From: an uncultured virus (IMG/VR IMGVR_UViG_3300044724_006669)
Taxonomy: Duplodnaviria; Heunggongvirae; Uroviricota; Caudoviricetes
Virus record (IMG/VR): IMGVR_UViG_3300044724_006669
Location: 1-64,000 of that record
Direction: 5' to 3' (one strand)
Length of the DNA stretch: 64,000 nt
Shown here: one piece after another, positions 2,253 through 54,941 of the stretch
Position numbering within the stretch: the stretch's first letter is position 1
Layout: the number at the start of each line of letters is the position of its first letter
Made by a program: the position numbers and the translations under genes
The notes under the pieces: model-generated
What the model was told of the DNA's origin: nothing
What the model saw: only the letters and a program-made list of their open reading frames with translations
Databases searched by the model: none

Positions 2253-2442
2253 TACAGTGCAGGGTTTGGAAAGAGGTGGGCAAGAAGGTAAAACTTATGT
2301 CCCCAGCCCCCTAGTTGCAAAGAGGTACGGGAGCCTAGATCTCTTGTTAGAATATCAGGCGGACCTGGTCGGAGGTGACACACAGCACCTCCCGTTTAGA
2401 TCATGAGAGGGTCCTTAAACATGTGCAACACTCTGCATTGTA
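2253..2442 (+). ncRNA. Candidate structured RNA 2 (~190 nt multibranch)
   Basis: 13-bp closing stem 2253-2265/2430-2442 with two G-U pairs. Internal hairpins 2278-2282/2298-2302, 2320-2326/2339-2345, 2354-2359/2364-2369, 2371-2377/2386-2392, ~2394-2420. Confidence 0.65.
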
Positions 2443-2453
2443 TTGGAGGTAAT

Positions 2454-2901: not shown

Positions 2902-3399
2902 ATGTATAGAGTCACAGGCTATTGGCGTGAAACAAAAATTGTGCAATATTTTAATTCAAGATATGATGCAATTGATTTCAAAGATGTTGTCGATGCAAAT
3001 TATCCAATAAAAGTGACATTTGAAAAAGGAGTTTATCCGATGAAAGAATGGATTGTTAGTTGTTGGAATAGTATAATGGATGATCGACGAAATCCTCTTA
3101 GTGCTATTCCAGACACAAATGTAAGACACATGGTCATGCAGGTATTAGCATGGATGTGGTGTATTATTTTTAGCATGGGCTTGGGCAGTTTAACAGTATT
3201 TGCCTATACCGCAGTAGCACACACATTGTTAATTGCAGGTATTGTTGCAACAGTTGTGATATTTGAGACTGCAAAACGTAAGCCCAGTTTCTTTTTAAAC
3301 AATGGATATCACACACCAAGCAGAAGTAGAGGCTATATGTGGGTGAACGGTGAAAAAATCAAGTTAGATAAAAATGATCCCGGGGGAGAACATGAATGA
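2902..3399 (+). CDS. Hypothetical membrane protein, possible internal start at 3040
   Basis: Two TM segments in the C-half; AAAGGAG precedes in-frame ATG 3040. Confidence 0.6.
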   Translation: MYRVTGYWRETKIVQYFNSRYDAIDFKDVVDANYPIKVTFEKGVYPMKEWIVSCWNSIMDDRRNPLSAIPDTNVRHMVMQVLAWMWCIIFSMGLGSLTVFAYTAVAHTLLIAGIVATVVIFETAKRKPSFFLNNGYHTPSRSRGYMWVNGEKIKLDKNDPGGEHE

Positions 3400-3995
3400 A
3401 AATACATAAATTTAACATTAGAATATTCTTAGTTACACTGCTTGCACTTCTTTGGAGTGCTTCTGCATTTGCAGATAAAGGTATTACCATATGTCATGGA
3501 CAATTTGCATTGTGTGCCGCTAGTGCATGCAAACCAACAGGTGGAACAATTACCAATCAATCTGGAGAATCATTTCCAGAAGTGAAATGTACTTGTCCTA
3601 TATTATTTGGTGATAACATAGCTGATCTAAGTGCAGGAAACATGACAAGTTGTGAACCAACAGGCGAAAATTCAGTATGGAGTACGTTTTGGCCAAGAGC
3701 TGATTATCCAAGACAACAAAATGATTTTTCTCATAACACAGAAAAAATGAGAGGAAACATTGTTGAATGTCCAGCCAGCCTCAAACAAGGACATCGAGCA
3801 AGTAATTGCTTCAGTTGGAACTGCAAAATAGACAAAAACGGATTGGCTGTATGTAGTTGCCCAATGGGGCAAGAACCACCAGAGACTGCATTCTTGATTG
3901 AAAGCACCATTGAAGGTACACAACGTTGTAGTGAACATCCAGTAAGTTTGCCATTGGTTAGTCAAATGTTTGAACGGTCACAACAGAAGAAATAA
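3396..3995 (+). CDS. Cys-rich exported protein
   Basis: Signal peptide ending ASAFA; many Cys including CAASAC, CTCP, CSCP motifs. Confidence 0.7.
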   Translation: MKIHKFNIRIFLVTLLALLWSASAFADKGITICHGQFALCAASACKPTGGTITNQSGESFPEVKCTCPILFGDNIADLSAGNMTSCEPTGENSVWSTFWPRADYPRQQNDFSHNTEKMRGNIVECPASLKQGHRASNCFSWNCKIDKNGLAVCSCPMGQEPPETAFLIESTIEGTQRCSEHPVSLPLVSQMFERSQQKK

Positions 3996-7060: not shown

Positions 7061-7372
7061 ATGCAGGCCCTCAACCAAATTACAGGTGCTATGGATGACA
7101 TAGACACTATACTTCAGAGGCACTTGAAAGATTATGTTCAAGTGCCTCGTCGTTATACACCTTATGATCCTCGAGAATGGACCAACCTACTTAAACAGGT
7201 ACATCAAGATTTTGGACGTCCTAGTGAACGTTGGGCTTGGATGCTAGATCATGAATGGCAACGTAAAATGATGGAAGATCCAGAATGGCGTGGTGTGGCA
7301 GTGAACGAATGGCATGTGATATTCTACTTTAAAAAAGAATCAGACGCAGTGATGTTTGGACTTAAATACTAG
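7061..7372 (+). CDS. Hypothetical protein
   Basis: C-terminal FYFKKESDAVMFGLKY motif resembles the next ORF. Confidence 0.65.
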   Translation: MQALNQITGAMDDIDTILQRHLKDYVQVPRRYTPYDPREWTNLLKQVHQDFGRPSERWAWMLDHEWQRKMMEDPEWRGVAVNEWHVIFYFKKESDAVMFGLKY

Positions 7373-7373
7373 C

Positions 7374-7718
7374 ATGAAATACACTGTTAAAAAACTTGAC
7401 GGACGTTATGCATATAATAATTACTTTGAATATTGTATAGAGTTTCAACGCAGCACATTTGGACCATTTGATTTTCATACTTGTATGGGCTGGATGATAG
7501 AAACCTATGGGTATAGTGCTGAAGTACGTGACTTCATGTACATTAGAGGAATGTTGCTAAAACGCCAACAGTTTAATGTTCCTAACAGTGATGCACCACA
7601 TTTTGTTAATCAGCAGTGGAGTTGGACAAACGGAAGTGAAAATTTACGTTTATACATGAAAAGCGAAAAAGAAGTTAGCTTCTTTAAACTTAAATGGGCG
7701 AAAGATGAAAACAATTGA
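7374..7718 (+). CDS. Hypothetical protein
   Basis: ATG 7374 directly after the previous stop; C-terminal LYMKSEKEVSFFKLKW. Confidence 0.65.
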   Translation: MKYTVKKLDGRYAYNNYFEYCIEFQRSTFGPFDFHTCMGWMIETYGYSAEVRDFMYIRGMLLKRQQFNVPNSDAPHFVNQQWSWTNGSENLRLYMKSEKEVSFFKLKWAKDENN

Positions 7719-41468: not shown

Positions 41469-44400
41469 CTAGTCTTTCAAAAACAGAGCAGCTGGTGTGG
41501 TTTGATCTTGTAGTGCAACTCCGTTACTTGCAGTACTTGCACCCTGAGCATACATTACATTTGCAGTAACTTGGCTAAAGTACACTTCCACTCCATCAGC
41601 TGGTGCAGTTACCAATGTTACTTCAGTTGTTGTTACATTTACTTCAGTAACAGAATAATCTGTTTCAGGTACCAATACTGTTCCTCCAACTATTACGCTA
41701 ATTGCATCTGTGATTTCTGTACTGTCGATAAGTGTTGGAATCACAATAGATGTTTCAAAAACTCTAGTTGATCCGTCACCTACATTTGTTTTGTCAGTGG
41801 TGGTTTTTTCTTGATAACGGGCAGGCAGTTGTTGTCCTGCACCAACATCACTAACAGTTTCACCAACTTCATGTTGATATATTCCAGTACCAGCAGTTCC
41901 CCTTCTCAAGCCACTAACACTATTGTTTCCTGTATTTCTTGATCTATAAGTAATTCTTTCGCCACCTACAATCAGTTGTCCAAAAATACCTTGTGTAAGA
42001 TTAGGTTCACCTAGCTTGCTAACATCATTAACAAAAATAGTATCATCTGAGATTGCCACTGTCTGTGCTAGTTCAGTAGTGTTTGTTTTATTAAATCTAA
42101 GCAGTTTTTGATTACCAATCATGTCTTGGAAGATACGGAAGTTAAGACTGTTTGGTACAACACTATTCGTAAAAATTGTTACTGCTAAAACGTCTGAAGC
42201 ATTCAGAAGACTTAGATCTAGTACCAAGGTACTAAGTTGGGTACCATCTGTTGATATTGTAAAATCGACGGTTGGTTGTAAATATTGTCCATTTAAAGTA
42301 ACAATAACTCTTTGTGTATCTGTTACCAGTCTTCCTAGTGCAAAGTTGTTTGTTTCAATTGCACCTTCGGTTGTAGGTCCAACAAACACCTTGGTTAAGA
42401 TTTTTTGTTGAGATGTATCGTTATATGTAGTAACATCAAATAGTGTATCAAAAGCAGCACTGACTCTTAGATTGATATCACTGGTATTAACAATTGTATA
42501 GTCAGCTTCAGTGGTAGTATAAATTTCTATTCTTGATCCAGCTGCTGGCAAAGACTGCGTATTAAATTCAATATATCTATCACTACTGCCATCCCATGGA
42601 CTTAGAGTCCAGTTTACAGAAACATTCTGTCTCACATTATCGACATACACCAGTAAATCAGCAGAACTAATTAATGCTTGGTTTGTTTTTGCAGTGGTAC
42701 TTAGATAATAAGGCCCAAGACTTGATCCATCACCAGTATATTCTATTCCTTCTGGTGGACGCAATCTTAAACCATCTTTATCAACAATCATGTTTGCAAC
42801 GTTTGTTCCTTGTAGACTTGCACTTAATGGATATTGTGTGCTAGATCCATCATAGTTAAAGTAATCTTTTACCTCTGTGCTCCAACTATATTGTATTGGT
42901 GTAGTTTCTCCAAGAGCAATAATTGTAAGCCATTGTGTGCTGGTAGGCTGACTGCCAAAAGTGATTTCTGTCGCAAAACTACCGCTGGCTGCAAAAGTAT
43001 AATCAGTTGTTTCACTGCCATCTAAGAAAATAAGCATTTCATTGATTTCTGAAAATGCCACAGGTATTATTTGTGTACGGTTTGTTATAGAACTTCCAAC
43101 AAAACTTTCTTTATAAAGTTGCGAACCTCCACCTACTCCATATACTTCAACTCTAATCACATCATCAACACTTGCATTTGCACTAGCACTCACAACCACA
43201 GTTTTTGTTACCCAATTGATTGCAATTACAGATGGTGGTAGAACCTGCCCAGTTGATATGTTTATAACATTTACATTAACAGGATGTTGAACAAGGTTTA
43301 GAAAACTAATTGTTACTCCAGTTGCTTCAAAGAAACTATTAGTGCTTTTAATTTCAAACCCGTGTCCATTATTACTCCAGTCACTGCCGGGTCTAGTAAA
43401 AACTTTTATATCTAGTGTGTCAAATTCGCTTCCAGGCACAAGTTCTTCAGGAGCATGTGAACTATATGTGTCGATAAATCCGCCGCCCTCTACGTTAATA
43501 TCTGTTGCTCTTGTTCCTAAATAGGTATCAGTAAAACTGCTTTCATATATCACATCTAGTATAGAATCGTCGTATGTGGGTAACCCTTCTGGGCCAAAAC
43601 TGATATTATCAAATGGATTTATATCATAATTTCCAATATCAAAACCAGTATTTTGATTAAAGTCCGGAGCATCGACCTGCACACCAGGATAGTCAATACC
43701 AGTCATTACCTGTGCTAACTCGCGTCCAGGTTCGTTTGGACCTGGATTATACAATCCAATGGTTCTGTCAGCGGCATCTAGTGTGTCAGGATCAACAACA
43801 GTATAATTATCTGGATTAAACTCAGAAGTCGACGTAAAATTCGAAGTTACATTGTAAATTTTAGGTTCAGCAACATTAACTACACCTACAATTGGCACTG
43901 GATAACGCACTAATTGTCCAGCAGTGTATGCAGTATTTGCAGTCCAATCTATTACTGTGCTTGAGTATGTAATTCTGTTATAAGCAATAGTAGTTGTAAA
44001 ATCACGTACTTGTTGTGTGCCTAGCACTGCTATTGCAGTTGCTCCACTACCGTTACCACCTGAAATAGTAATAATCGGTGTGGTGGTATATCCACTACCA
44101 GGAGTAATAACATTGATAGCAGTTACTACTCCAGCGGTGTTTACAGTTGCTGTCATAGTTGCCTGTGTTGTAGCATCACCTGTAACAATAACTTGTGGTG
44201 CCACTGTATACCCAGACCCACCATTAACTACTGTAGCAGTTGAAACCACCAATAGATAGTTTTGATACCATTGACTCCATGGAAACGTCGTCCATAATGA
44301 TGATGTACTTGGCACGGCACTTTTTGATTCTGGATTTGTACTATCATCTAATATTGGCGATACAAACTGTTGTAAAGTATTATCGTAATATGCTGGTAAA

Positions 44401-47400
44401 TCAAAATCAGTTACACTTCCGTTGTAAGTATCTTCACCTTCGTATCTTAAATTGAATTCTCTAATTTGAACATGATATGGTTTAACTTCTTTGATATAAT
44501 CCTCAACAAAGTCTTGATTATCTCTTCTGAATATTGGATATTCAATTAAGTCACGTATTTTATGATTTATATCAATTAAACTAGTTTTAAACAACCAGTT
44601 TGGCGCGGCCAATGTACTCATTATAAATTCAAACATCAATATTAATAATTCATTACGTCTTACTAATAAATCTCCTACAAATATTTCAGTGTTTAGAGCT
44701 TGTAATATTTGTCTTGTTTCTGTAATTGGTTCTTCGCCAGCTATGGGATTTTCAATCGTATAATCCCAGATAGTTGCGTCTATTTCAATTGTACCATCTT
44801 CTAAATAAACTCTTGTCCATTCACCTGATGTTGTGCTATATTGGTAAACTTCTGTTTTTCCATTACTGTTTGCAGTAACAGTTGCCCATTCGCCGTTTTG
44901 TACATTGTTGAGAGCTAAAAGATTACTGTAAACTGCAACCTCATAAGAAGAAGTATTATCACTATTGTAAAACGACCCATCAGCATTAATTCCAAACCAA
45001 TCAACATAACTCCAATAAAGATTTGTTTTATAGCTTTGTACACGAGTTAATAAAAGTGTTTGATCTGATTGTACAGTATAGATTGACCATAGCCCTTCGT
45101 TGTTAACATCGCTTGCCACTAGATATTGATATCCAATTGCTACCTGTGCTAAGTCTTGATAGGTAAGCTCAGCATAGGTTAAAACTCGCTTGTTCCATAA
45201 TCCACTTGCTAGAGTTGGTTCAGGTTCTTCGCTGTTTAATAATGTAAAACTCTTGCTTTCTGAAATAGTATACAACTTCATAATAGCATTTGCTCTGGTC
45301 ATGTAGTTCTTAAGTGCAAGAAATCTATCAACAAACATACTTTGTCTTGGTCGAAAACTAACACCATATCTATTCGCAAGACTAAGTGTTGTATCTGGAA
45401 CTGCATTTCCTGATGTATCAGCTCCGCAAAAACTGTCAAGATATTTTCTATACAATTGTGTTCCTAAGAAACTGTTCTTATCTGCGTCGGTTATGATATC
45501 ATATTCACTATGAACATTGTCATCATTGGCAATTTTATCAAATTCAACATGCAATATTGAGTCATCAGCACTTATAAGGTTTCTTGAGTTAAAAAGTGTA
45601 ATTTCATTTTTTGCAATTGCGGCTGCATAACTAATACCACTGGCACGTGGATTGGAAATGTACTGTTCTATACCGCTCGAACTTAGTGTTTTGTTTGGGC
45701 TGATAGCAGTCAATCCTTTGATCCAATAAAAATACTTTGTTACAAAGGTGCCAGCACTGTCAAGATACGTTATAGTTGTATAACTATCAGTTGTATACAC
45801 TGTTCCAGGTCCACTATAATTTGCAGGCGGTACTCTGTTCTCAGTCCATTGATAGATATCTACACTAGAACCATCAAATAACTGACCCCACCGTCTTGCT
45901 CTAAACTGTATGTCATCTTGATTATAATCTATAAATCTAACCGTTGATAAGTCCCACCAGATTTCTCCAAGGTGTTCTTCTCTCCACATGCTTCCAAAGT
46001 TGTTCACTGTACCTGTGTTATACAACGCAGGGTCAATTCCGCCTGTGTAGTCAATGTTGGCGTTTGCGGCTCCTAGTATTCTACCTTGCAGTGGATCTAT
46101 GAAATCTAAGTATCTTGTAATACTATTAGAAACTTTATTGTATATAAACACACTATTTAACAATGCTGAATCTACAACTGGGGCTTCCGTATATCTTGCT
46201 TTCCAACTTGGTTCATTATCAGCATTTGTGAACTGTGTTACACGACCAAAGTTACCAGAGCTATCGCCAAGATCATCATTTGGTGCACCAACAAGTAAGA
46301 TTCCGTCTACATAACTTACACTACTTCCAAATTTGTCAAGGCTGGTAATACTCATATCGTAAATTTGTTGTCCGTATACAAACTTGCCAGAGTTTGTTGC
46401 ACTTGGAGATGCAGAATTTAAAAAATCGTATGTATATGCAACGCCTGATTCAGGCATTGGATCTACCACGTTTGTTGATCCAGAATCAAAATCTGTTGTT
46501 GAATTATCAAAAGTAGTAGATAAGAATGCAGTTGCATCTGGAGCTCCAACACTTAATGTAAGTGCATCATCACTAATGTTAATACTTGTGCCAAAATGTC
46601 CATATGCTTGTGCAACAGGTGGAACAATTGTTTGAGCATATACCCAAGGTTTCAATCCTAAATCACTAAATGCAGTTCCTGTACCCGGTGCTACTTCTAG
46701 TTTGATAAACTGTTCTCCAGCTTCTATATCAACCAATGTAATTTGTAATGCGCCATTTACTGTAGCACCAACTATATTTGGAATATTTGCATTTGTAATA
46801 TCAGTAACCAAACTCTCAACTGTTGTTCCTGTGAGTGTTACATAGTAGTTGTTGATACGGATACTGTCTGCGGCACTAAGCACAGGATTAGACACAGTAC
46901 CGGTAATAGTTCCAAAAAGTCGGCTTTGATTTATCCAACGCTCTACACTACCTTGTTCAACTGCCACTGCACTATCGTGTGGCATACTGATATATGCACT
47001 ACAATTAGTTGAACACATGTCAACGGCTCTACCAAAATAATAGTTTTCACCGTTTAAGGCACTGTTAAAATTTTGTAGTGTAGTAAAACTATTAGTTTCA
47101 ATTTCGATTATATCACCAACTGAAAGAGTTACTGGATTAAGTGTTGTTCCGATAGTTATTACACTTCCAGCAACACTAAATTGTGCATTGTTTGCATTTC
47201 CAGTTGGAATTAAGAATGTTCCGTTAAGTTTGACTGTAACTGGAACAGTAGGAACAATGCTGGTTGTATAAGAAACTGTAGCGGCATTGGTAACTTGAAA
47301 TCTTTCTACACTTCTATCAACAATATAACTTTCACCAGCAAAAGTATTTGTTTCAATGGTTGCATCTGGAGTGCCAATTAAAATTTGTCTGCCATCTGTG

Positions 47401-50400
47401 GTTGTTGATACACTGTAACCAAATTGATCGCTGGCTCCAAGACCACTTGCAGTAAAACTATTAACAAAATCCCAATGCGTTTTTGCATTTATTGTTAAAG
47501 TTCCCGAACTTATTCCTGAAGTCAATACAATGTCAGATCCAACAACTGTGTAGTCAAAAAATGGACGCAATAAAACTGAGTCCTGCACAACAGTCATTGA
47601 ATAAATGTCACTGGCCGTAAACAAAGTTGTAAAACTAAAGTTTGTTGTTAACACAGTTGGATTAAAACTTTGGCTCTCACGTCTACTAATAACAATTACA
47701 TCATCAAGATTTGGTGCAGTGGTAAAAATCACTGATTGTATATCATTTGAGGTAAGGACTGTATAATCAACACCAGCAGTTTGTTCAAGTGTATTTCTTG
47801 TGACTTTGATTTGTGTTTGAGCGGTTCCGTCACTGGCATCAACTTGAATTGTTGGTTCTATTACAAAACTTAATGTTGTTCCGTCTCCAGTGAATGTTAA
47901 ACTCTGTGTTTGCACATTTACTTTGTTATATGCATAAATTTTGTTATCAGCTGGAGCACTGATATACATCCAGCGTTCATCATCGCTAATGGCTACGCTA
48001 TAACCAAATTTATCAGCGTCATTTGTTCCTGTGTTAAAGTGCTGATAGAAACTATAAGTTGCGTTTGAGGAATTTCTAACAATGGCACTTGCATAACCTT
48101 TATTAGAATCTGAATCAGGTGCACCAACTATAGCCCATTCAGTGTCACCTACATCAGTGCTAAATCCAAAACCTGTGAACAGGAGTGATGCATCAGGAGA
48201 AAGAATTGTTTGCTGAGCATAGGTTGAACCATTAATTGTTGAACCATCCTCTAACTTGTTATACGCATAAACACCACCAATGCCACTTGCGTATCCTGTT
48301 GCTCCAATAATCAATCCGTCATTGTTTAATCCTTGTGCCAACGAGGTTCCGAGTAGATCATTTATAACTGGTGTTTCGGCTTGTATTTCGCCTGTGGTTG
48401 AGAATGGATTTTGTTTTTGTAACACTGTCCAATTGTCATTACCGTTATTATCGACCCATACTTGATTTGTAGCAACTAAACTTGTACTAAAACTAAGTCC
48501 AGCAATATCACTTGGTTGAGCAACTCTTACACTCTCTAGTGTAAAGGCTCTACCATTTCCATTTGTAATTGTTGTTACGTCATCTGGCAGACTGAGATTT
48601 ACTGTTAATGTTTTTAGTCCAGGTACAGTTTGAATAATATAAGCACCGTCAACTGCACTATTGAAAAATTTTATAATTAATCTTTGTCCAACACTTAAAC
48701 CATGGTTACTAGTAAAAGTGAATGTGCAAGTTCCGTTTAGGTTGTCAATCACTGTTGAAAGTGTAGAATTTACAAGATTAACTCTGTAAATATTCCAATC
48801 GAAAGTGTTTGCTTTTGCGACCCAAATATTTGTTCCAACGACAATAGTAGTAAGGTTGTTTATCACAGTTGTTAGGTCATCAAAATCAAAAACTTTAATG
48901 TCAACATCATCATAATTTACGTAACCAGCACTTGGCAATCCAACATTATCTGGAATACCATTGATTGTTGGTAAAATATCAGTGGTGCTAATTTTATAAC
49001 TTGATTTGTAAATATCATCAATTAAAACTGTTTGTTCAGCAGTTGAAATAGTATCAGGCGCCACTACTGCTATTGTGCTTGGGTTACTAAGCAGTTTGCT
49101 TTCTTCTAGTTGTAATTCAAAATAACTTCGGTTAGCATTTGCTCCATATATAGCTCTTTGGATTGCCCAATTTTCTCTGATTTCGTATTCTGCTTCTTCT
49201 TTGCCAAGGTTTGCACTTTTAAATTGTTCAGCGGCACGAATAGTGCCTTTTGTGCCCAAGAACTGTGAGTACAAACCAGCCTGTGAAATGTCGTCGAGGT
49301 TAAGATTTTGCATGTACTGTCTTGGTCTAAATCCAATTAGTCCTAGTCCTAGTAATGTTGAATCGCTTTCAAGATTAGCAGTGTGAATGTTATAATTATC
49401 TTGCAATTCATCTGCTTTAGTTGCAAGGTTAGGAAGTAAACCAGTTTGTATTCTAGCGTAATCACTTTTTATCCAGTCTGCAAAAACAAAAGTTTGGCTT
49501 GGTGATAAAATTGTAGTGGCACTCCAATAAGAGTTTTTATATTCTACAATCTGCCCTTTGGTGTAGCCTACATTCGGCTCCCATGATTTTATATTATCTT
49601 GGTTGAGTATAAAGCCTTGTGCATCTAATGTACCATTCCAGTCATACACTGTATACCCATTAACTAATAATCGATTTTGTCTTGCGCCAGTTACTGGTTG
49701 ATAGATCAGATCATTGAAAATACTAATATTATCAAAGACTATGATGTGTTCATAAGATGTAAATCTTCCTTGTAGAAAACTAAAAGTATTATTATTCAAT
49801 CCTATAAGTTTCAGTTCGTTGTCTAATCTTTCTACTGCATAGTCGTCTGACAACAAAGGTCTAAAATTTTGATTCAATATTACGTCATTGAGATTTTCGC
49901 TTGCTAGGCTCTCAACAACACTAAAGTCTTTTTCTAGCTTTAGAATGTTGGCCGCTGGATTTAAATTTATAACACTTCCTACAGTCCAACTTTGTCCAAC
50001 CCAGTAGATAAACTCTTGAGCCATTTGTGTCCAGTTTACAATAACCTCATTCTCGGTTGAGTCAAAGGACATGCCCTGTTGCTTTAATAATTCACCATAA
50101 CTCACTAAAAAATCTACTACTGAACTAGAGCTTGAAAATTCATAACCGTAAGGCACTTGTGTCACTTGATTCGTAAATGTTTGAGGTACTCTAAAAGTGT
50201 TGCCATTTACAGTGAAGGTACTGAATGTTCCTGCGGCAGTGCTCTTTAAAATATTGAAATACGGTTTAGTAGTAGAATAACCAGCAACTGTCCAACCTGT
50301 GTTTGTTCTTTGAACTATAACACTGGAAAACTGGACTTCAGAAAAACTTGGATTTTTATATAAAAATAGTTGATAGCTTTCGTCGGGCAACAACAAACTG

Positions 50401-53400
50401 CTATTTAGACTGTTCGGAGATGATTTTTCAGAAAATATTTTTAAATAGCTCTTATCACTGAAACCTGCCATTCGATAGCATAAACGTACGTCAAGATTTT
50501 CTAGTTTTGTTTTTACTAAAGCGGTACTATCAACTCCTGTTAATCTATTGTAATCAACTACAAAATTTATGAAACTGTGTTTTGCAGTTCCATTACCATA
50601 AACTTCAACGGTTGAAGCATCAACACGATATCTATCATTGTAAAGGTATTGATTGAAATCTGTGTTGTATTTGTACAAGTCTACATCAGAAAACAAACCA
50701 AAATACTTTGCAGGCATAGTAAGAGCAAGCAATCTCTGAATAGCAAACGGATAATAGCTACTTCTTCTCCAAGCAGTTTGTGTAGGAGCATAATCTCCAG
50801 CCACCCAAGATTTTTTAAAACTGTTTATATCGTAACTTCCAACAATCGAAACCATTGGATCAACTAGATTGCCCTGTGAATCTGTTGGTAAACAATCTAG
50901 TAATTCTGGGCGAACAAATCTTGGTTTAATAACATCACCAGTTGGATAGGTAATTTTACCATCTGCCATGTCTTGCCATAGTACAGTGTTTCCACTGGTG
51001 TAAGGAGCAGGACCATAACGTGTTTCCCACCAGGTTGGTTTTTCACTTAAACCAACCATTTCCCATGGACGAGTATCAGGACTATCTGTGTCGTAGAGAT
51101 TAAAATATATACCACGCCAGAAGCCAAGTAAAGGTTTTCCATCTAGTCTATTTGCACTCTGACTGTAATTCCAAGTAAAACCGTTATCAGCATCGTAGGT
51201 TTGAATTTTGTACGGAACTCTTTGTGCACCAACCCAAGCAAGAAAACTTACATTAAGAATATCGTTTATCTCAGTGAGTGTATAGTCAGTTGTTCTAAAC
51301 TGTCCTGGAATAACATCAACGGCTTGAAGTATAGGATTGTATTTTTCATCAGCTGTAAGTTTGATATTATTATAACATCTTTTTTCAAACTCTAATAGCA
51401 CACTATTTCTGTAATCACCATCTGGAAATGATACTGTGATGCTGCCATCATGTCCTTGTATTACATTTGTTGGTTCCACATAGGTATTGTCAAGGAACTC
51501 CCTTGGCATGTATACTTGGTATAAGCCTAACATGCTCGGAGTTGCAGGCACATAACTTCCATATGTTGTTTTGTATTCTCGTATAATAATCTTATCGCCA
51601 ATTGAAAGTGTAATATCAGAAGAATTAATTGTAATTCTTGGACCATCAGTAGCAACTGTATATTCATGCCCGTCGCCGACTAGTTGTGTCTCTACTCCAG
51701 TTGAAACTGGAATATAATAAACCAATAAACCTTGATAGTTTGCTGATGTAAAGTTATAATTGTAGAGTGTATCAAAAACATATGTTGTGATTGGAGTCAC
51801 AGTGTATGTTGTTTGTTCGTAAACTGTTCCAGTTGGAATCGCATCAGTCCAGTAAAATGATGAAGATGAAGTTTTTCCAGCGTTTATTGCAAGCAGAGTT
51901 TGGTCAAGAATCTCAGCCGCAGTTTTGTTTTCCCAATCGTTGTTTGCAACATAATCAAGTATTTTGTTCTTGGTTTTATTATACTCAGAAGCATTAAATT
52001 CCAATGATCTAAAGTAATCAGTGCTTCTTTCATTTATAAAAGGAGTTGTAAGTGTTAATGGTGCACTTTGTTGTAGAATTAAATCACCGTATGGAATAAT
52101 ATTACCAAGGTCACGTATGTTGTTTGCTCCGTGTATCTTACCTGAGAAGTGTTCAAGGTTTTGACAGATACTTTCATAGTGTGTCCTAAGTGTTCCTAGA
52201 GTAAAAGTAGAACTATTTTCGTTTAGAGCATTTGATTCTAGATTGTCTGGAATAGTATAGAACGCAACACTACTAGGACTATTGCTTATGACCTGCACTT
52301 CTATTACCGATCCTATTGGAGGAACAGTTGCTGGTTGTCCAACCACATTTGCATTGAATGTAATTTCAGTGACCCCTGCACTGTTTGTTGCATAGGTATA
52401 GGTATCAGACAGTATAAATTGTCCTTCAACAAAAACTTTCACTGGTACAATACTTGTATCATTTGACACTTCAACATCAAGAATCAATGAGTTCCCATCA
52501 AATTCAAAACTAAAACTTTGTCGTTGAACATAATTTGTAAAACTTGTTTGCCATCCAAGAAGTTTTATAAAAGTATCAATTGTGTTGTACTGTCTTACTG
52601 TACCAAGAGAAATGTTTGCTGTAGTACCATTATTAGATGAGCCGTAAGTAAACGTATCTGAATAAAAATTATTATCAAATACAATGTCACCAACATTATT
52701 GATGGTTAAATATTTCAAAGGTTGTTCAATAATGGAATCTGTAGTTCCAGTGCCAACGGCATAGCTAAAAATTTTAGTTCCTGCAAAAGTAGTAGAAGGG
52801 TAAACTAAAGTATCGCTTAAACTATAACCACTTGAATCGTAGATATCAAATAATGGTGCCTGGTTTGTATCTGTTTTTTGTTGAGCTTCTGTCCAAGTGA
52901 TGCCATTAAACCAGTAGGATTTTCCTTGTTCAGTTACTCCAGATCTTACAACAACAGTTATATTAGTTGCAATGTCAGGTTCGGTCAAACTTGCAGGTTG
53001 TAAGTCAATTATATCACCTGCTCCAAGATTAATAAATTGTACTGTATAAATTTTATTTACAACTTCGGGATCAACGTCTGCATTGAATATAATTCTTGAA
53101 CCTTCAATTAGGCTATATCCATCTACTGAATATCCAGAGGTTCCATTTATATTACTAAACGCATCAGTTTCGTCAAAATCAATAATATCAACTGGTTGTG
53201 TAGCAAGAGTACCAAAGTTATACAATTTTAGATTTTTAACAAATTCAATAATTGGTCGTTTTGCTCTTGCATCATTATCTAAGGTTAATACTGTATTATT
53301 GTAGTTTGCAGTTGCAGTAAGCACATCAATATGAAACCATCTATTACCTCTACTCCAAGCATTTAGATTAATGCTTGCTCTGTTAATTAAGAGATAATCT

Positions 53401-54941
53401 TGTACAATAGGAGCGTCAGCAGTTGCATCGAATCCACCTTCGTCGAAACTAGTACTATCAAAAGGCACTGTTTCTGACTTTGTATAGGTTTCAGGGGTTA
53501 TTAAGTCGGTAACTTTTACAAATTCAATCGCAGTACCAACACCTTCTACATAGTATTCTACGTTTGCATAACTTGCAGGAACCACATTTCCAATAAATTT
53601 GACTTTCAAGCCATTGGTGAAAACCACACCATTTGGTGATGTATAATTAGGTTCACCGAGGATATCTTCTATGTTTAAGTCTGAGGAATTTATTTGGTCT
53701 ACTACTCTTATTACACCAAAATTTAGTTCATCGCTACCGTCTTGATAGTACAAGATATCAAGATTAGCAGTTATCAGTGGCTGACGTGCAAATACACCTT
53801 CAGCAGTTTTGTACATAGTGCTACCAGAGTATTCTGTGCCATATTCTATCTTTGTTTTGCTTAGATTTGCAATGCTTTGTACTTTTGTAAGTTCCATAAA
53901 CGGACGAAGTGGATCGTCGTAGTTGTAATTTATACGCCATTGGACATACCGATCGGCGTCTGTTGGAATTGCACCTGAATCACTAAATGCAGTTGTATCA
54001 AACCCTTCACTAGAAAATGGTTCTTCATCTTCCCAACCTTGGTCTGTGGTTGTATTGAAAATAAGTGTCCGGTTTTGTAAATCAGTTATGCCATCAATAC
54101 CGCCATGTTCTTCTAAGAAAACATCAACATATCGATTGTTTATTTGATTAAACTGAAGTGTATCTTCGACCAAGTCAGTAGAACCTATGTCAGCAAGATT
54201 AAAGAAAAAATTCTGTGCAGTTTTTGCAGGAACATTAAAAGAAACTGTTCCAACATCATCACCATTGTTGGTTACTCCAAGTACTTCACGAGAACTTTGG
54301 TTGGCTTGTTGTGGTAATACACCACTGGTTCCAGGAACACTTTGTATCCAAAAATTACGTCCACTTGCGTTTACATCAAATGTATAGTTTCCTTCTCTTA
54401 CAAGTGTGATTGTGGGCAGTGTGCCACTATAACCACTAAACTTGTACCCGACTTCGCTGTAGGTTACATCAAAGTTGTCTGCAGTTGGAATAGTATTTGC
54501 AAATACATCAACACTATTTGGACCTGCTGGTATCCAATAATACTGTCCAAAGTTCACAAATTTGTCATAATCAATCATTGGATCGTAGCTATAATGCTCG
54601 CTATTGAATAACCTATCGTGTCTTGTTGTATTTGCTCCTTGCATTTTCAAACTATCAATTATACCTGGATAGGTAATTGCATTATCAACTGTGCTTGTAT
54701 CAGGTTGAAGTTGAACTACCCCTGGTTCCAATTGATAATCTGTTCTGGTTGCAGATGGTTCAAGAATATAGTTGTCACTGGCAGTTACCCCTGGACCAAT
54801 TTTACGTCCTATGTAACCTTCTGTTGGTTTAAGTTTAGGATTTTGTGTAAGCTGATCAAGAGTACTTCTTAGAAGTTGCTTATTAGCTGGTGTTTGAAAG
54901 ATTTCAGGTAAGAAATCCTCTGAGCGAATACGCTTAGCCAT
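41469..54941 (-). CDS. Giant (4490 aa) baseplate wedge/virion protein with FG-GAP propeller repeats
   Basis: Follows gp25-gp6. Repeats such as FGYSVAIS, FGSSVS..LLVGAP, GSGYT..P.I.I.G and FD-x-x-x-FD. Confidence 0.75.
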   Translation of the reverse strand: MAKRIRSEDFLPEIFQTPANKQLLRSTLDQLTQNPKLKPTEGYIGRKIGPGVTASDNYILEPSATRTDYQLEPGVVQLQPDTSTVDNAITYPGIIDSLKMQGANTTRHDRLFNSEHYSYDPMIDYDKFVNFGQYYWIPAGPNSVDVFANTIPTADNFDVTYSEVGYKFSGYSGTLPTITLVREGNYTFDVNASGRNFWIQSVPGTSGVLPQQANQSSREVLGVTNNGDDVGTVSFNVPAKTAQNFFFNLADIGSTDLVEDTLQFNQINNRYVDVFLEEHGGIDGITDLQNRTLIFNTTTDQGWEDEEPFSSEGFDTTAFSDSGAIPTDADRYVQWRINYNYDDPLRPFMELTKVQSIANLSKTKIEYGTEYSGSTMYKTAEGVFARQPLITANLDILYYQDGSDELNFGVIRVVDQINSSDLNIEDILGEPNYTSPNGVVFTNGLKVKFIGNVVPASYANVEYYVEGVGTAIEFVKVTDLITPETYTKSETVPFDSTSFDEGGFDATADAPIVQDYLLINRASINLNAWSRGNRWFHIDVLTATANYNNTVLTLDNDARAKRPIIEFVKNLKLYNFGTLATQPVDIIDFDETDAFSNINGTSGYSVDGYSLIEGSRIIFNADVDPEVVNKIYTVQFINLGAGDIIDLQPASLTEPDIATNITVVVRSGVTEQGKSYWFNGITWTEAQQKTDTNQAPLFDIYDSSGYSLSDTLVYPSTTFAGTKIFSYAVGTGTTDSIIEQPLKYLTINNVGDIVFDNNFYSDTFTYGSSNNGTTANISLGTVRQYNTIDTFIKLLGWQTSFTNYVQRQSFSFEFDGNSLILDVEVSNDTSIVPVKVFVEGQFILSDTYTYATNSAGVTEITFNANVVGQPATVPPIGSVIEVQVISNSPSSVAFYTIPDNLESNALNENSSTFTLGTLRTHYESICQNLEHFSGKIHGANNIRDLGNIIPYGDLILQQSAPLTLTTPFINERSTDYFRSLEFNASEYNKTKNKILDYVANNDWENKTAAEILDQTLLAINAGKTSSSSFYWTDAIPTGTVYEQTTYTVTPITTYVFDTLYNYNFTSANYQGLLVYYIPVSTGVETQLVGDGHEYTVATDGPRITINSSDITLSIGDKIIIREYKTTYGSYVPATPSMLGLYQVYMPREFLDNTYVEPTNVIQGHDGSITVSFPDGDYRNSVLLEFEKRCYNNIKLTADEKYNPILQAVDVIPGQFRTTDYTLTEINDILNVSFLAWVGAQRVPYKIQTYDADNGFTWNYSQSANRLDGKPLLGFWRGIYFNLYDTDSPDTRPWEMVGLSEKPTWWETRYGPAPYTSGNTVLWQDMADGKITYPTGDVIKPRFVRPELLDCLPTDSQGNLVDPMVSIVGSYDINSFKKSWVAGDYAPTQTAWRRSSYYPFAIQRLLALTMPAKYFGLFSDVDLYKYNTDFNQYLYNDRYRVDASTVEVYGNGTAKHSFINFVVDYNRLTGVDSTALVKTKLENLDVRLCYRMAGFSDKSYLKIFSEKSSPNSLNSSLLLPDESYQLFLYKNPSFSEVQFSSVIVQRTNTGWTVAGYSTTKPYFNILKSTAAGTFSTFTVNGNTFRVPQTFTNQVTQVPYGYEFSSSSSVVDFLVSYGELLKQQGMSFDSTENEVIVNWTQMAQEFIYWVGQSWTVGSVINLNPAANILKLEKDFSVVESLASENLNDVILNQNFRPLLSDDYAVERLDNELKLIGLNNNTFSFLQGRFTSYEHIIVFDNISIFNDLIYQPVTGARQNRLLVNGYTVYDWNGTLDAQGFILNQDNIKSWEPNVGYTKGQIVEYKNSYWSATTILSPSQTFVFADWIKSDYARIQTGLLPNLATKADELQDNYNIHTANLESDSTLLGLGLIGFRPRQYMQNLNLDDISQAGLYSQFLGTKGTIRAAEQFKSANLGKEEAEYEIRENWAIQRAIYGANANRSYFELQLEESKLLSNPSTIAVVAPDTISTAEQTVLIDDIYKSSYKISTTDILPTINGIPDNVGLPSAGYVNYDDVDIKVFDFDDLTTVINNLTTIVVGTNIWVAKANTFDWNIYRVNLVNSTLSTVIDNLNGTCTFTFTSNHGLSVGQRLIIKFFNSAVDGAYIIQTVPGLKTLTVNLSLPDDVTTITNGNGRAFTLESVRVAQPSDIAGLSFSTSLVATNQVWVDNNGNDNWTVLQKQNPFSTTGEIQAETPVINDLLGTSLAQGLNNDGLIIGATGYASGIGGVYAYNKLEDGSTINGSTYAQQTILSPDASLLFTGFGFSTDVGDTEWAIVGAPDSDSNKGYASAIVRNSSNATYSFYQHFNTGTNDADKFGYSVAISDDERWMYISAPADNKIYAYNKVNVQTQSLTFTGDGTTLSFVIEPTIQVDASDGTAQTQIKVTRNTLEQTAGVDYTVLTSNDIQSVIFTTAPNLDDVIVISRRESQSFNPTVLTTNFSFTTLFTASDIYSMTVVQDSVLLRPFFDYTVVGSDIVLTSGISSGTLTINAKTHWDFVNSFTASGLGASDQFGYSVSTTTDGRQILIGTPDATIETNTFAGESYIVDRSVERFQVTNAATVSYTTSIVPTVPVTVKLNGTFLIPTGNANNAQFSVAGSVITIGTTLNPVTLSVGDIIEIETNSFTTLQNFNSALNGENYYFGRAVDMCSTNCSAYISMPHDSAVAVEQGSVERWINQSRLFGTITGTVSNPVLSAADSIRINNYYVTLTGTTVESLVTDITNANIPNIVGATVNGALQITLVDIEAGEQFIKLEVAPGTGTAFSDLGLKPWVYAQTIVPPVAQAYGHFGTSINISDDALTLSVGAPDATAFLSTTFDNSTTDFDSGSTNVVDPMPESGVAYTYDFLNSASPSATNSGKFVYGQQIYDMSITSLDKFGSSVSYVDGILLVGAPNDDLGDSSGNFGRVTQFTNADNEPSWKARYTEAPVVDSALLNSVFIYNKVSNSITRYLDFIDPLQGRILGAANANIDYTGGIDPALYNTGTVNNFGSMWREEHLGEIWWDLSTVRFIDYNQDDIQFRARRWGQLFDGSSVDIYQWTENRVPPANYSGPGTVYTTDSYTTITYLDSAGTFVTKYFYWIKGLTAISPNKTLSSSGIEQYISNPRASGISYAAAIAKNEITLFNSRNLISADDSILHVEFDKIANDDNVHSEYDIITDADKNSFLGTQLYRKYLDSFCGADTSGNAVPDTTLSLANRYGVSFRPRQSMFVDRFLALKNYMTRANAIMKLYTISESKSFTLLNSEEPEPTLASGLWNKRVLTYAELTYQDLAQVAIGYQYLVASDVNNEGLWSIYTVQSDQTLLLTRVQSYKTNLYWSYVDWFGINADGSFYNSDNTSSYEVAVYSNLLALNNVQNGEWATVTANSNGKTEVYQYSTTSGEWTRVYLEDGTIEIDATIWDYTIENPIAGEEPITETRQILQALNTEIFVGDLLVRRNELLILMFEFIMSTLAAPNWLFKTSLIDINHKIRDLIEYPIFRRDNQDFVEDYIKEVKPYHVQIREFNLRYEGEDTYNGSVTDFDLPAYYDNTLQQFVSPILDDSTNPESKSAVPSTSSLWTTFPWSQWYQNYLLVVSTATVVNGGSGYTVAPQVIVTGDATTQATMTATVNTAGVVTAINVITPGSGYTTTPIITISGGNGSGATAIAVLGTQQVRDFTTTIAYNRITYSSTVIDWTANTAYTAGQLVRYPVPIVGVVNVAEPKIYNVTSNFTSTSEFNPDNYTVVDPDTLDAADRTIGLYNPGPNEPGRELAQVMTGIDYPGVQVDAPDFNQNTGFDIGNYDINPFDNISFGPEGLPTYDDSILDVIYESSFTDTYLGTRATDINVEGGGFIDTYSSHAPEELVPGSEFDTLDIKVFTRPGSDWSNNGHGFEIKSTNSFFEATGVTISFLNLVQHPVNVNVINISTGQVLPPSVIAINWVTKTVVVSASANASVDDVIRVEVYGVGGGSQLYKESFVGSSITNRTQIIPVAFSEINEMLIFLDGSETTDYTFAASGSFATEITFGSQPTSTQWLTIIALGETTPIQYSWSTEVKDYFNYDGSSTQYPLSASLQGTNVANMIVDKDGLRLRPPEGIEYTGDGSSLGPYYLSTTAKTNQALISSADLLVYVDNVRQNVSVNWTLSPWDGSSDRYIEFNTQSLPAAGSRIEIYTTTEADYTIVNTSDINLRVSAAFDTLFDVTTYNDTSQQKILTKVFVGPTTEGAIETNNFALGRLVTDTQRVIVTLNGQYLQPTVDFTISTDGTQLSTLVLDLSLLNASDVLAVTIFTNSVVPNSLNFRIFQDMIGNQKLLRFNKTNTTELAQTVAISDDTIFVNDVSKLGEPNLTQGIFGQLIVGGERITYRSRNTGNNSVSGLRRGTAGTGIYQHEVGETVSDVGAGQQLPARYQEKTTTDKTNVGDGSTRVFETSIVIPTLIDSTEITDAISVIVGGTVLVPETDYSVTEVNVTTTEVTLVTAPADGVEVYFSQVTANVMYAQGASTASNGVALQDQTTPAALFLKD

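Follow-up and report, generated by a model that had tools for sequence, protein, structure and literature searches.

A pseudoknotted RNA family encoded upstream of the polymerase omega gene in uncultured giant marine and estuarine phages

Uncultured giant phages of marine and estuarine waters that encode an omega subunit of RNA polymerase carry a real and so far uncatalogued family of pseudoknotted RNAs. The copy described here occupies positions 2253-2442 (+ strand) of the window, a term that we use for the whole 64-kb stretch of DNA analysed, which is the first part of a 71.5-kb virus record with an estimated completeness of 21%. Comparison of homologues establishes the fold of this RNA, its non-coding status and its strand, as well as its independence from the identity of the next gene. 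The reading that we favour, with a probability of roughly 50%, is that of a stable structural RNA acting in trans, the product of a single-copy phage gene and not a switch on the gene that follows. The parts of the RNA in the window are the following:

2253-2442, + strand: the RNA, a short-subtype copy of 190 nt (matches of model R1; count of G-U against A-C)
2253-2265, + strand: 5' arm of P1a, paired to 2430-2442 by 13 bp (the long subtype reaches ~16-17)
2267-2268, + strand: 5' arm of P1b, weakly supported, pairing with 2420-2421 (most other copies have 4 bp, this one 2)
2275-2304, + strand: P2, a variable hairpin by folding (segment of 22-48 nt among homologues)
2309-2325, + strand: P3 hairpin, 2309-2312/2321-2325 with a bulge at 2323 and an 8-nt loop at 2313-2320
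2314-2319, + strand: 5' strand of the pseudoknot, in the P3 loop, pairing with 2424-2429
2333-2360, + strand: P4 arm, longer in the long subtype, with a conserved internal loop C-N-C / U at 2341-2343 / 2353
2361-2414, + strand: P5 arm, made of P5a (2361-2365/2410-2414), P5b (2367-2370/2399-2402) and a conserved bulge (2403-2408)
2371-2392, + strand: P6, a peripheral, dispensable stem that keeps its own pairs and can be deleted (the "SD/anti-SD" hairpin of the initial annotation)
2415-2418, + strand: UUAA linker, invariant in an alignment of 24 sequences
2424-2429, + strand: 3' strand of the pseudoknot, abutting the 3' arm of P1a
2430-2442, + strand: 3' arm of P1a (folding and alignment)
2445-2450, + strand: RBS belonging to the next gene; it lies outside the RNA and should be open (94-100% unpaired by prediction)

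The initial annotation had proposed a novel structured non-coding RNA, branched rather than 6S-like in fold, and this description is supported. Its coordinates for the closing stem (2253-2265/2430-2442), for one hairpin (2371-2377/2386-2392) and for the RBS (2445-2450) are correct, as is the overlap of the next ORF with the omega gene; the 13-bp closing stem includes two G-U pairs. The GC-rich island that it reported is also there, with a GC content of 50% vs a window mean of 37%, a value equalled by 0.14% of the 190-nt windows. Its "about five hairpins" hold approximately, since by comparison the RNA has five arms that bear four hairpin loops, and the 6-bp pseudoknot (2314-2319/2424-2429) was absent from its description. 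Folding gives a z-score of -3.48 for positions 2251-2444 (60 shuffles) and of -1.73 when the flanks are included (2240-2460). Two of the checks that it had proposed, a covariation test on collected homologues and an Rfam scan, found covarying homologues and no matching family, respectively.

Homologous loci were collected with three genes that lie near the RNA as queries (the 68-aa ORF, omega and the glycine-zipper gene), two of the lists of relatives being the best 80 of 139 and the best 80 of 94. The model R1, built on six short copies, was then applied to 81 sources picked from the omega loci, with exact duplicates and loci with almost no upstream DNA excluded, and it matched 62 of them. 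After five truncated matches were dropped, the 57 remaining ones represented 49 distinct full-length sequences, which fall into a short subtype (38 sequences, 163-219 nt) and a long one (11 sequences, 231-240 nt). R1 gives the long copies 18-31 bits, and the copy in the window is recovered at 19.9 bits by the long-type model (R2); the subtypes were searched with these separate models, and very distant copies may be missed. Among the 19 unmatched sources, one has the 3' end of the RNA at the contig edge, and in 15 the sequence upstream of omega is no longer than 1,073 nt; the other three have 5 kb upstream of omega, yet no RNA. Two natural variants were each seen on a single contig and could be assembly errors: a 31-nt deletion that removes P6 (L113:98-260) and a duplication in the P3-P4 linker (L183:37-255).

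In the predicted fold, P1a closes a junction that carries P2, P3, P4 and P5/P6, and the loop of P3 pairs just inside the 3' arm of P1a. P1a shows changes on both sides in 7 of its 13 pairs, with 97.4% of the cells paired among 24 sequences. A structure descriptor parsed 48 of the 49 sequences, and the pseudoknot is formed in all 48, with covariation in four of its six pairs. As this descriptor confines the pseudoknot strands to purine and pyrimidine classes, an independent check was taken from a MAFFT alignment of 24 sequences, where the five pseudoknot pairs counted are 100% paired and three of them change on both sides. The stem of P3 covaries too, so loop pairing and stem are predicted to coexist, the eight loop bases being an unpaired A, the six that pair and a further one; the top pair of P3 is U-A in 48/48 sequences, the second is C-G in 40, U-A in 7 and U-G in 1, and the bulged base is variable. 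P5a is paired in 48/48 with three of five pairs covarying, whereas the pairs of P1b, formed in 48/48 and 47/48, show one-sided changes only; if P1b is real, the pseudoknot contact would be a loop-to-bulge kiss. In P4, the pairs that flank the internal loop are formed with covariation in 23/23 parsed sequences, and the C-N-C loop is kept in 48/48. A second pseudoknot (2328-2330/2392-2394) is possible, with nearly invariant bases and no covariation signal.

Taken as a whole, the structure shows changes on both sides in 21 of 41 pairs, a score reached by 0/500 shuffles (a shuffle that ignores relatedness), and controls with slid partners are 33-50% paired vs 93% for the real partners. The corresponding figure in an alignment of ten long-type sequences is 9 of 47 pairs. 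Parsimony on an omega-gene tree, built from 234 nt and carrying no support values, requires the pair to change 6 times at position 5 of the pseudoknot, 8 times at its position 6 and 8 times at one position of P5a. Predicted base pairs took seven of the first eight places when the column pairs of 36 short copies (an effective number of ~11) were ranked by mutual information. The closing stem across 48 sequences holds 58 G-U against 0 A-C combinations, which places the RNA on the + strand; an RNA on the minus strand was rejected on the same count.

With this evidence in hand, two of the rival readings can be weighed together. One is that of a chance fold of a GC-rich spacer, or of a small protein gene (the 49-codon ORF at 2257-2406), for which the modest z-score obtained with flanks and the presence of that ORF in 7/49 sequences could be invoked. 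Chance folding, however, is already refuted by the covariation found in these sequence comparisons; the lengths of the copies fall in all three frames with no frame kept, 16/49 stop after four codons, and among 47 matches of a loose pattern in IMG/VR the pseudoknot and the closing stem occur together only in the two copies already known, so that we give this reading practically no credit. The other is a riboswitch, whose conserved core could bind a ligand, or the translational switch in the form that the initial annotation had proposed: the ACCTCC at 2387-2392 would leave its hairpin to pair with the RBS at 2445-2450, to which it is complementary as a string. The CACCUCC behind it occurs in only 15 of 37 short copies and is missing from the other 22. 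In the window, the alternative pairing has a probability of 3e-11 in an equilibrium model without pseudoknots, and a fold made to contain it has an energy of -55.3 kcal/mol in place of -71.7, a cost of ~16 kcal/mol. P6 retains its 7/7 pairs in 37/37 short-type homologues through seven sequence versions, its arms covary with each other and not with the RBS, and it is deleted in L113 and present in another form in the 10 parsed long-type copies (deleted or replaced in 11/48 altogether). No conserved alternative helix with the RBS of comparable energy was found among the homologues, and a closing stem of 13 bp is long for a switching helix. Co-transcriptional traps are invisible to an equilibrium model, but they would not explain the homologues. 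On energy and homologue evidence the proposed switch is not real, the switch reading in general is largely refuted, and we regard what is left of it as highly improbable.

The RNA lies in a neighbourhood of small genes on the same strand, of which the closest are:

1959-1987, + strand: nearest upstream sigma-70-like promoter (10/12), before the 74-aa ORF, by consensus match only
2024-2248, + strand: 74-aa ORF, with its stop codon 4 nt before P1a and present at most 1.5 kb upstream in 27/31 loci
2454-2660, + strand: 68-aa ORF of no known family, the commonest downstream neighbour and not a constant one
2644-2901, + strand: phage RNA polymerase omega subunit (Pfam PF01192, E 7e-8)

The 68-aa ORF and the omega gene share 17 nt, and the omega profile matches the E. 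coli RpoZ chains (E 3e-13). The block that travels together is made of the glycine-zipper gene, the 74-aa ORF, the RNA, the 68-aa ORF, omega and a cysteine-rich protein. The RNA is always upstream of omega and on the same strand, at 34-1257 nt, with up to four genes in between. The label "omega operon" used before is thus loose: the RNA does precede omega, but the gene directly downstream is of eight kinds, one of them a PsiE-family protein. Protein genes flank the RNA on both sides, and the nearest tRNA is ~0.9-4.3 kb away. A complete 328-kb relative with terminal repeats, identical to the window record across the 5.7 kb compared, has one copy of the RNA. The AAA ATPase of the window phage has its nearest cultured relatives in PA5oct-like Pseudomonas phages (51%), followed by Phosso and Atu_ph07, and a tblastn search with the omega protein gave 0 matches in the cultured-phage collection; our literature search found no description of a phage clade encoding its own polymerase omega.

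Some features of this neighbourhood stand as observations in their own right. The omega protein (2644-2901, +) retains an N-terminal MAR and has 158 relatives at E 0.001. The cysteine-rich protein (199 aa, 3396-3995, +) has a likely signal peptide and no Pfam or PHROG match; its cysteines are invariant in seven aligned copies, and it follows omega also in phages that lack the RNA. A sister group without the RNA has a promoter-like site and a short hairpin directly upstream of omega (L121:4900-5000 = L023:2900-3000). Farther away, a 4,490-aa ORF (41469-54941, -) with FG-GAP and carbohydrate-binding matches is probably a tail or adhesin protein.

Farther upstream of the RNA there is a second conserved small RNA candidate (1351-1440, +; z -3.14), with three hairpins of which the last is terminator-like with a U run. 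Its copies in 11 distinct contexts have 85-100% identity and mostly precede the main RNA by ~810-850 nt. It matched nothing in Rfam or in cultured phages and was missing from four of the five records searched, and its pairing with the main RNA is no better than that of shuffles. An 11-bp inverted repeat (1283-1340, +) lies just upstream of this candidate, where most relatives have other sequence.

Upstream signals differ among the copies. In 8 of 39 distinct upstream contexts a consensus sigma-70 promoter (-35 with 6/6 and -10 with at least 5/6) places the +1, as inferred from spacing, at or within ~1 base of the 5' end of P1, and among the promoter-bearing contexts are two (L207 and L209) where insertions separate the RNA from its usual upstream genes. 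Four more of the 39 have a -10 box only, and 27, including the window, have no -10 box before the RNA. Downstream of P1a none of the 39 contexts shows a terminator-like U run, and an RBS comes within ~2-25 nt, an arrangement that fits an operon leader equally well. Contigs from RNA libraries (four runs examined, depths 3-10) include an exact 156-nt contig wholly inside the RNA (X17, 2270-2425), an exact 171-nt piece that extends 29 nt past its end (X13, 2301-2471), a 612-nt contig spanning both neighbours (X1, 2132 to 2741) and pieces that cross into both neighbours (X6); as such contigs reveal neither ends, strand nor level, they are a hint of transcription only. The set of 17 RNA runs that includes these four has a word share of 13-31%, which may reflect conservation of the RNA sequence and not expression.

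These data bear on whether the RNA is a gene or a part of a message. It could be a cis element of the omega transcript, a folded leader or intergenic insert never released as an RNA of its own, that would for instance protect the message, set a processing site or bind a regulator, with feedback by polymerase or omega. Its constant strand and place upstream of omega, the RBS right behind P1a without a terminator and the library contigs running into the neighbours all suit such an element, which would be the very 5' end of the transcript wherever the RNA has its own promoter. Against it stand the up to four genes that may precede omega, the first of them of eight kinds, the lack of a conserved alternative pairing with the RBS, and a fold far more elaborate than a protective hairpin requires; this explanation seems to us unlikely but deserving to be kept in view. 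A ribozyme of a new class that cuts or processes the polycistronic transcript, or else some other RNA, and whose catalytic core would be the pseudoknot and the invariant linkers, strikes us as improbable. The many invariant unpaired bases around the pseudoknot and the tight placement of the RNA, between a stop codon 4 nt upstream and an RBS 2 nt downstream, speak for it, and self-cleaving RNAs between genes in phage operons are reported in the available part of PMC3088659. However, no Rfam ribozyme family matched at E up to 10, and a promoter at the start of P1 leaves nothing upstream to remove.

In the reading that we favour, a stable RNA acting in trans, P1a, the pseudoknot helix and P3 would stack into one rod. 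The RNA would be transcribed together with its neighbours, starting at P1a where it has its own promoter and being cut out at P1a otherwise, and its invariant unpaired bases would bind a protein or complex in the infected cell. Our single best guess for this partner, a speculative one taken from the gene neighbourhood, is the host RNA polymerase carrying the phage omega, and we find it likewise doubtful, if attractive, that RNA and phage omega form a two-part module remodelling host transcription, with a fold unrelated to that of 6S RNA. The linkage is partly by construction, as the loci were collected through omega; the glycine-zipper gene is equally close to the RNA (30/31 loci); omega occurs without detectable RNA in four related records, the best of them 86% complete; and the long and short subtypes need five changes on the omega tree (234 nt, no support values). 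Being scattered on that tree, the subtypes suggest that RNA and omega alleles reassort.

Beyond the omega loci, the family has a narrow distribution. Whole-record searches of the sister group were negative (records 10-86% complete). In cultured phages, blastn found no match for the short type and one 29-nt chance match for the long type. R1 and R2 gave short weak matches only in 49 records that include PA5oct, Atu_ph07, Phosso and SCTP-2 (45 of the 49 are from IMG/VR, most of them fragments), and no copy turned up in 61 loci, apart from one weak 39-nt match. Two exact patterns, each spanning a 30-nt length range, found 0 copies in GTDB genomes, where diverged copies are possible, and pattern scans of IMG/VR gave true copies in 7/9, 0/3 and 2/47 matches, all on contigs already known. 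One stretch of PA5oct (NC_071039, ~7187-7418; L146:3188-3419) reaches 15.5 bits with R2 and has a closing stem. We rejected it as an unsupported homologue: a loose descriptor of the topology finds a match every 3 kb or so, and in three relatives the putative knot or stem is disrupted by uncompensated substitutions. This stretch (L146:3188-3419), mostly intergenic and folding well (z -3.01), may represent a separate RNA.

Only a few RNA classes are large and pseudoknotted and have an invariant core, and their known functions are mostly those of ribozymes or of parts of central machines. The RNA reported here is the mark of a clade of phages with a polymerase omega subunit of their own. Its core is ready for building and probing in vitro, as nature has already supplied 49 variants of the RNA, two subtypes, one deletion and one duplication. 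If it is true that the RNA acts on the polymerase, it would represent a new way for a phage to take over transcription.

As for known RNAs, Rfam 15 gave 0 matches at gathering score in the window, and at E up to 10 nothing over the RNA, either in positions 1900-2800 or in 10 homologous loci of both subtypes; the Rfam scans were also negative for group I and group II introns, twister, hatchet, cobalamin and TPP riboswitches and retrons. ARAGORN found 0 tRNAs or tmRNAs in the window and 0 in the 71.5-kb record. The 6S RNA was rejected (RF00013 model, 0/3 phage records at E up to 10): it resembles the phage RNA in size, in its long closing stem and in a possible polymerase link, which here consists of the omega neighbourhood only, but 6S is a rod with a central bubble whereas the phage RNA is a branched multi-arm junction with a pseudoknot. 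RNase P RNA shares with the phage RNA a topology in which the 3' strand of a long-range helix lies directly against the 3' arm of the closing stem; unlike in RNase P, the 5' strand of this helix is here a hairpin loop, the conserved P4 sequence motifs are not seen, and the RF00010 model matched 0/3 records while 8/14 controls passed.

Other phages encode comparable RNAs. RNA C and RNA D of T4 (139 and 119 nt, NC_000866) are likewise stable structured RNAs inside polycistronic regions, with "yet unknown functions" according to the available part of PMC9697503, but they lie inside a tRNA cluster and not between protein genes; as candidates they were rejected, since they score at best 8.3 and 4.1 bits with R1 and R2 and their folds differ. 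The cultured jumbo phage PA5oct, whose AAA ATPase is 51% identical to that of the window phage, has the non-coding RNAs ncRNA001, 002 and 004, two of them highly transcribed (PMC7318152, accessible part), and R1 and R2 gave no match at their coordinates. Our literature search, which covered few subscription papers, found no description of the phage RNA, nor do the accessible parts of PMC7318152, PMC7162821, PMC8545117, PMC9697503 and PMC10690425 describe it. The last of these (Fremin 2023) lists 10,006 viral candidate RNAs; the searched files of its supplement contain neither a motif of the RNA nor its contig id, and the RNA or a piece of it may be among the unnamed candidates.

The nearest known RNA in plan is the raiA motif, a bacterial RNA of Bacillota and Actinomycetota whose function is not known according to the available parts of PMC10861870 and PMC12968392. 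The RF03072 model matched 0/3 records, and raiA was rejected as an identity for the phage RNA (0/14 control genomes passed the cut-off, so this comparison has no positive control). As far as these sources describe it, raiA is also ~200-250 nt long, with a long P1, an optional P2, a 6-bp pseudoknot onto the P3 loop, variable peripheral stems and short and long subtypes. Its knot, however, is wired differently: raiA has both a PK1, between the P3b loop and the P5-P6 linker, and a PK2, whereas the phage RNA, in which no second pseudoknot is supported by covariation, finds the partner of its P3 loop just inside the 3' arm of P1.
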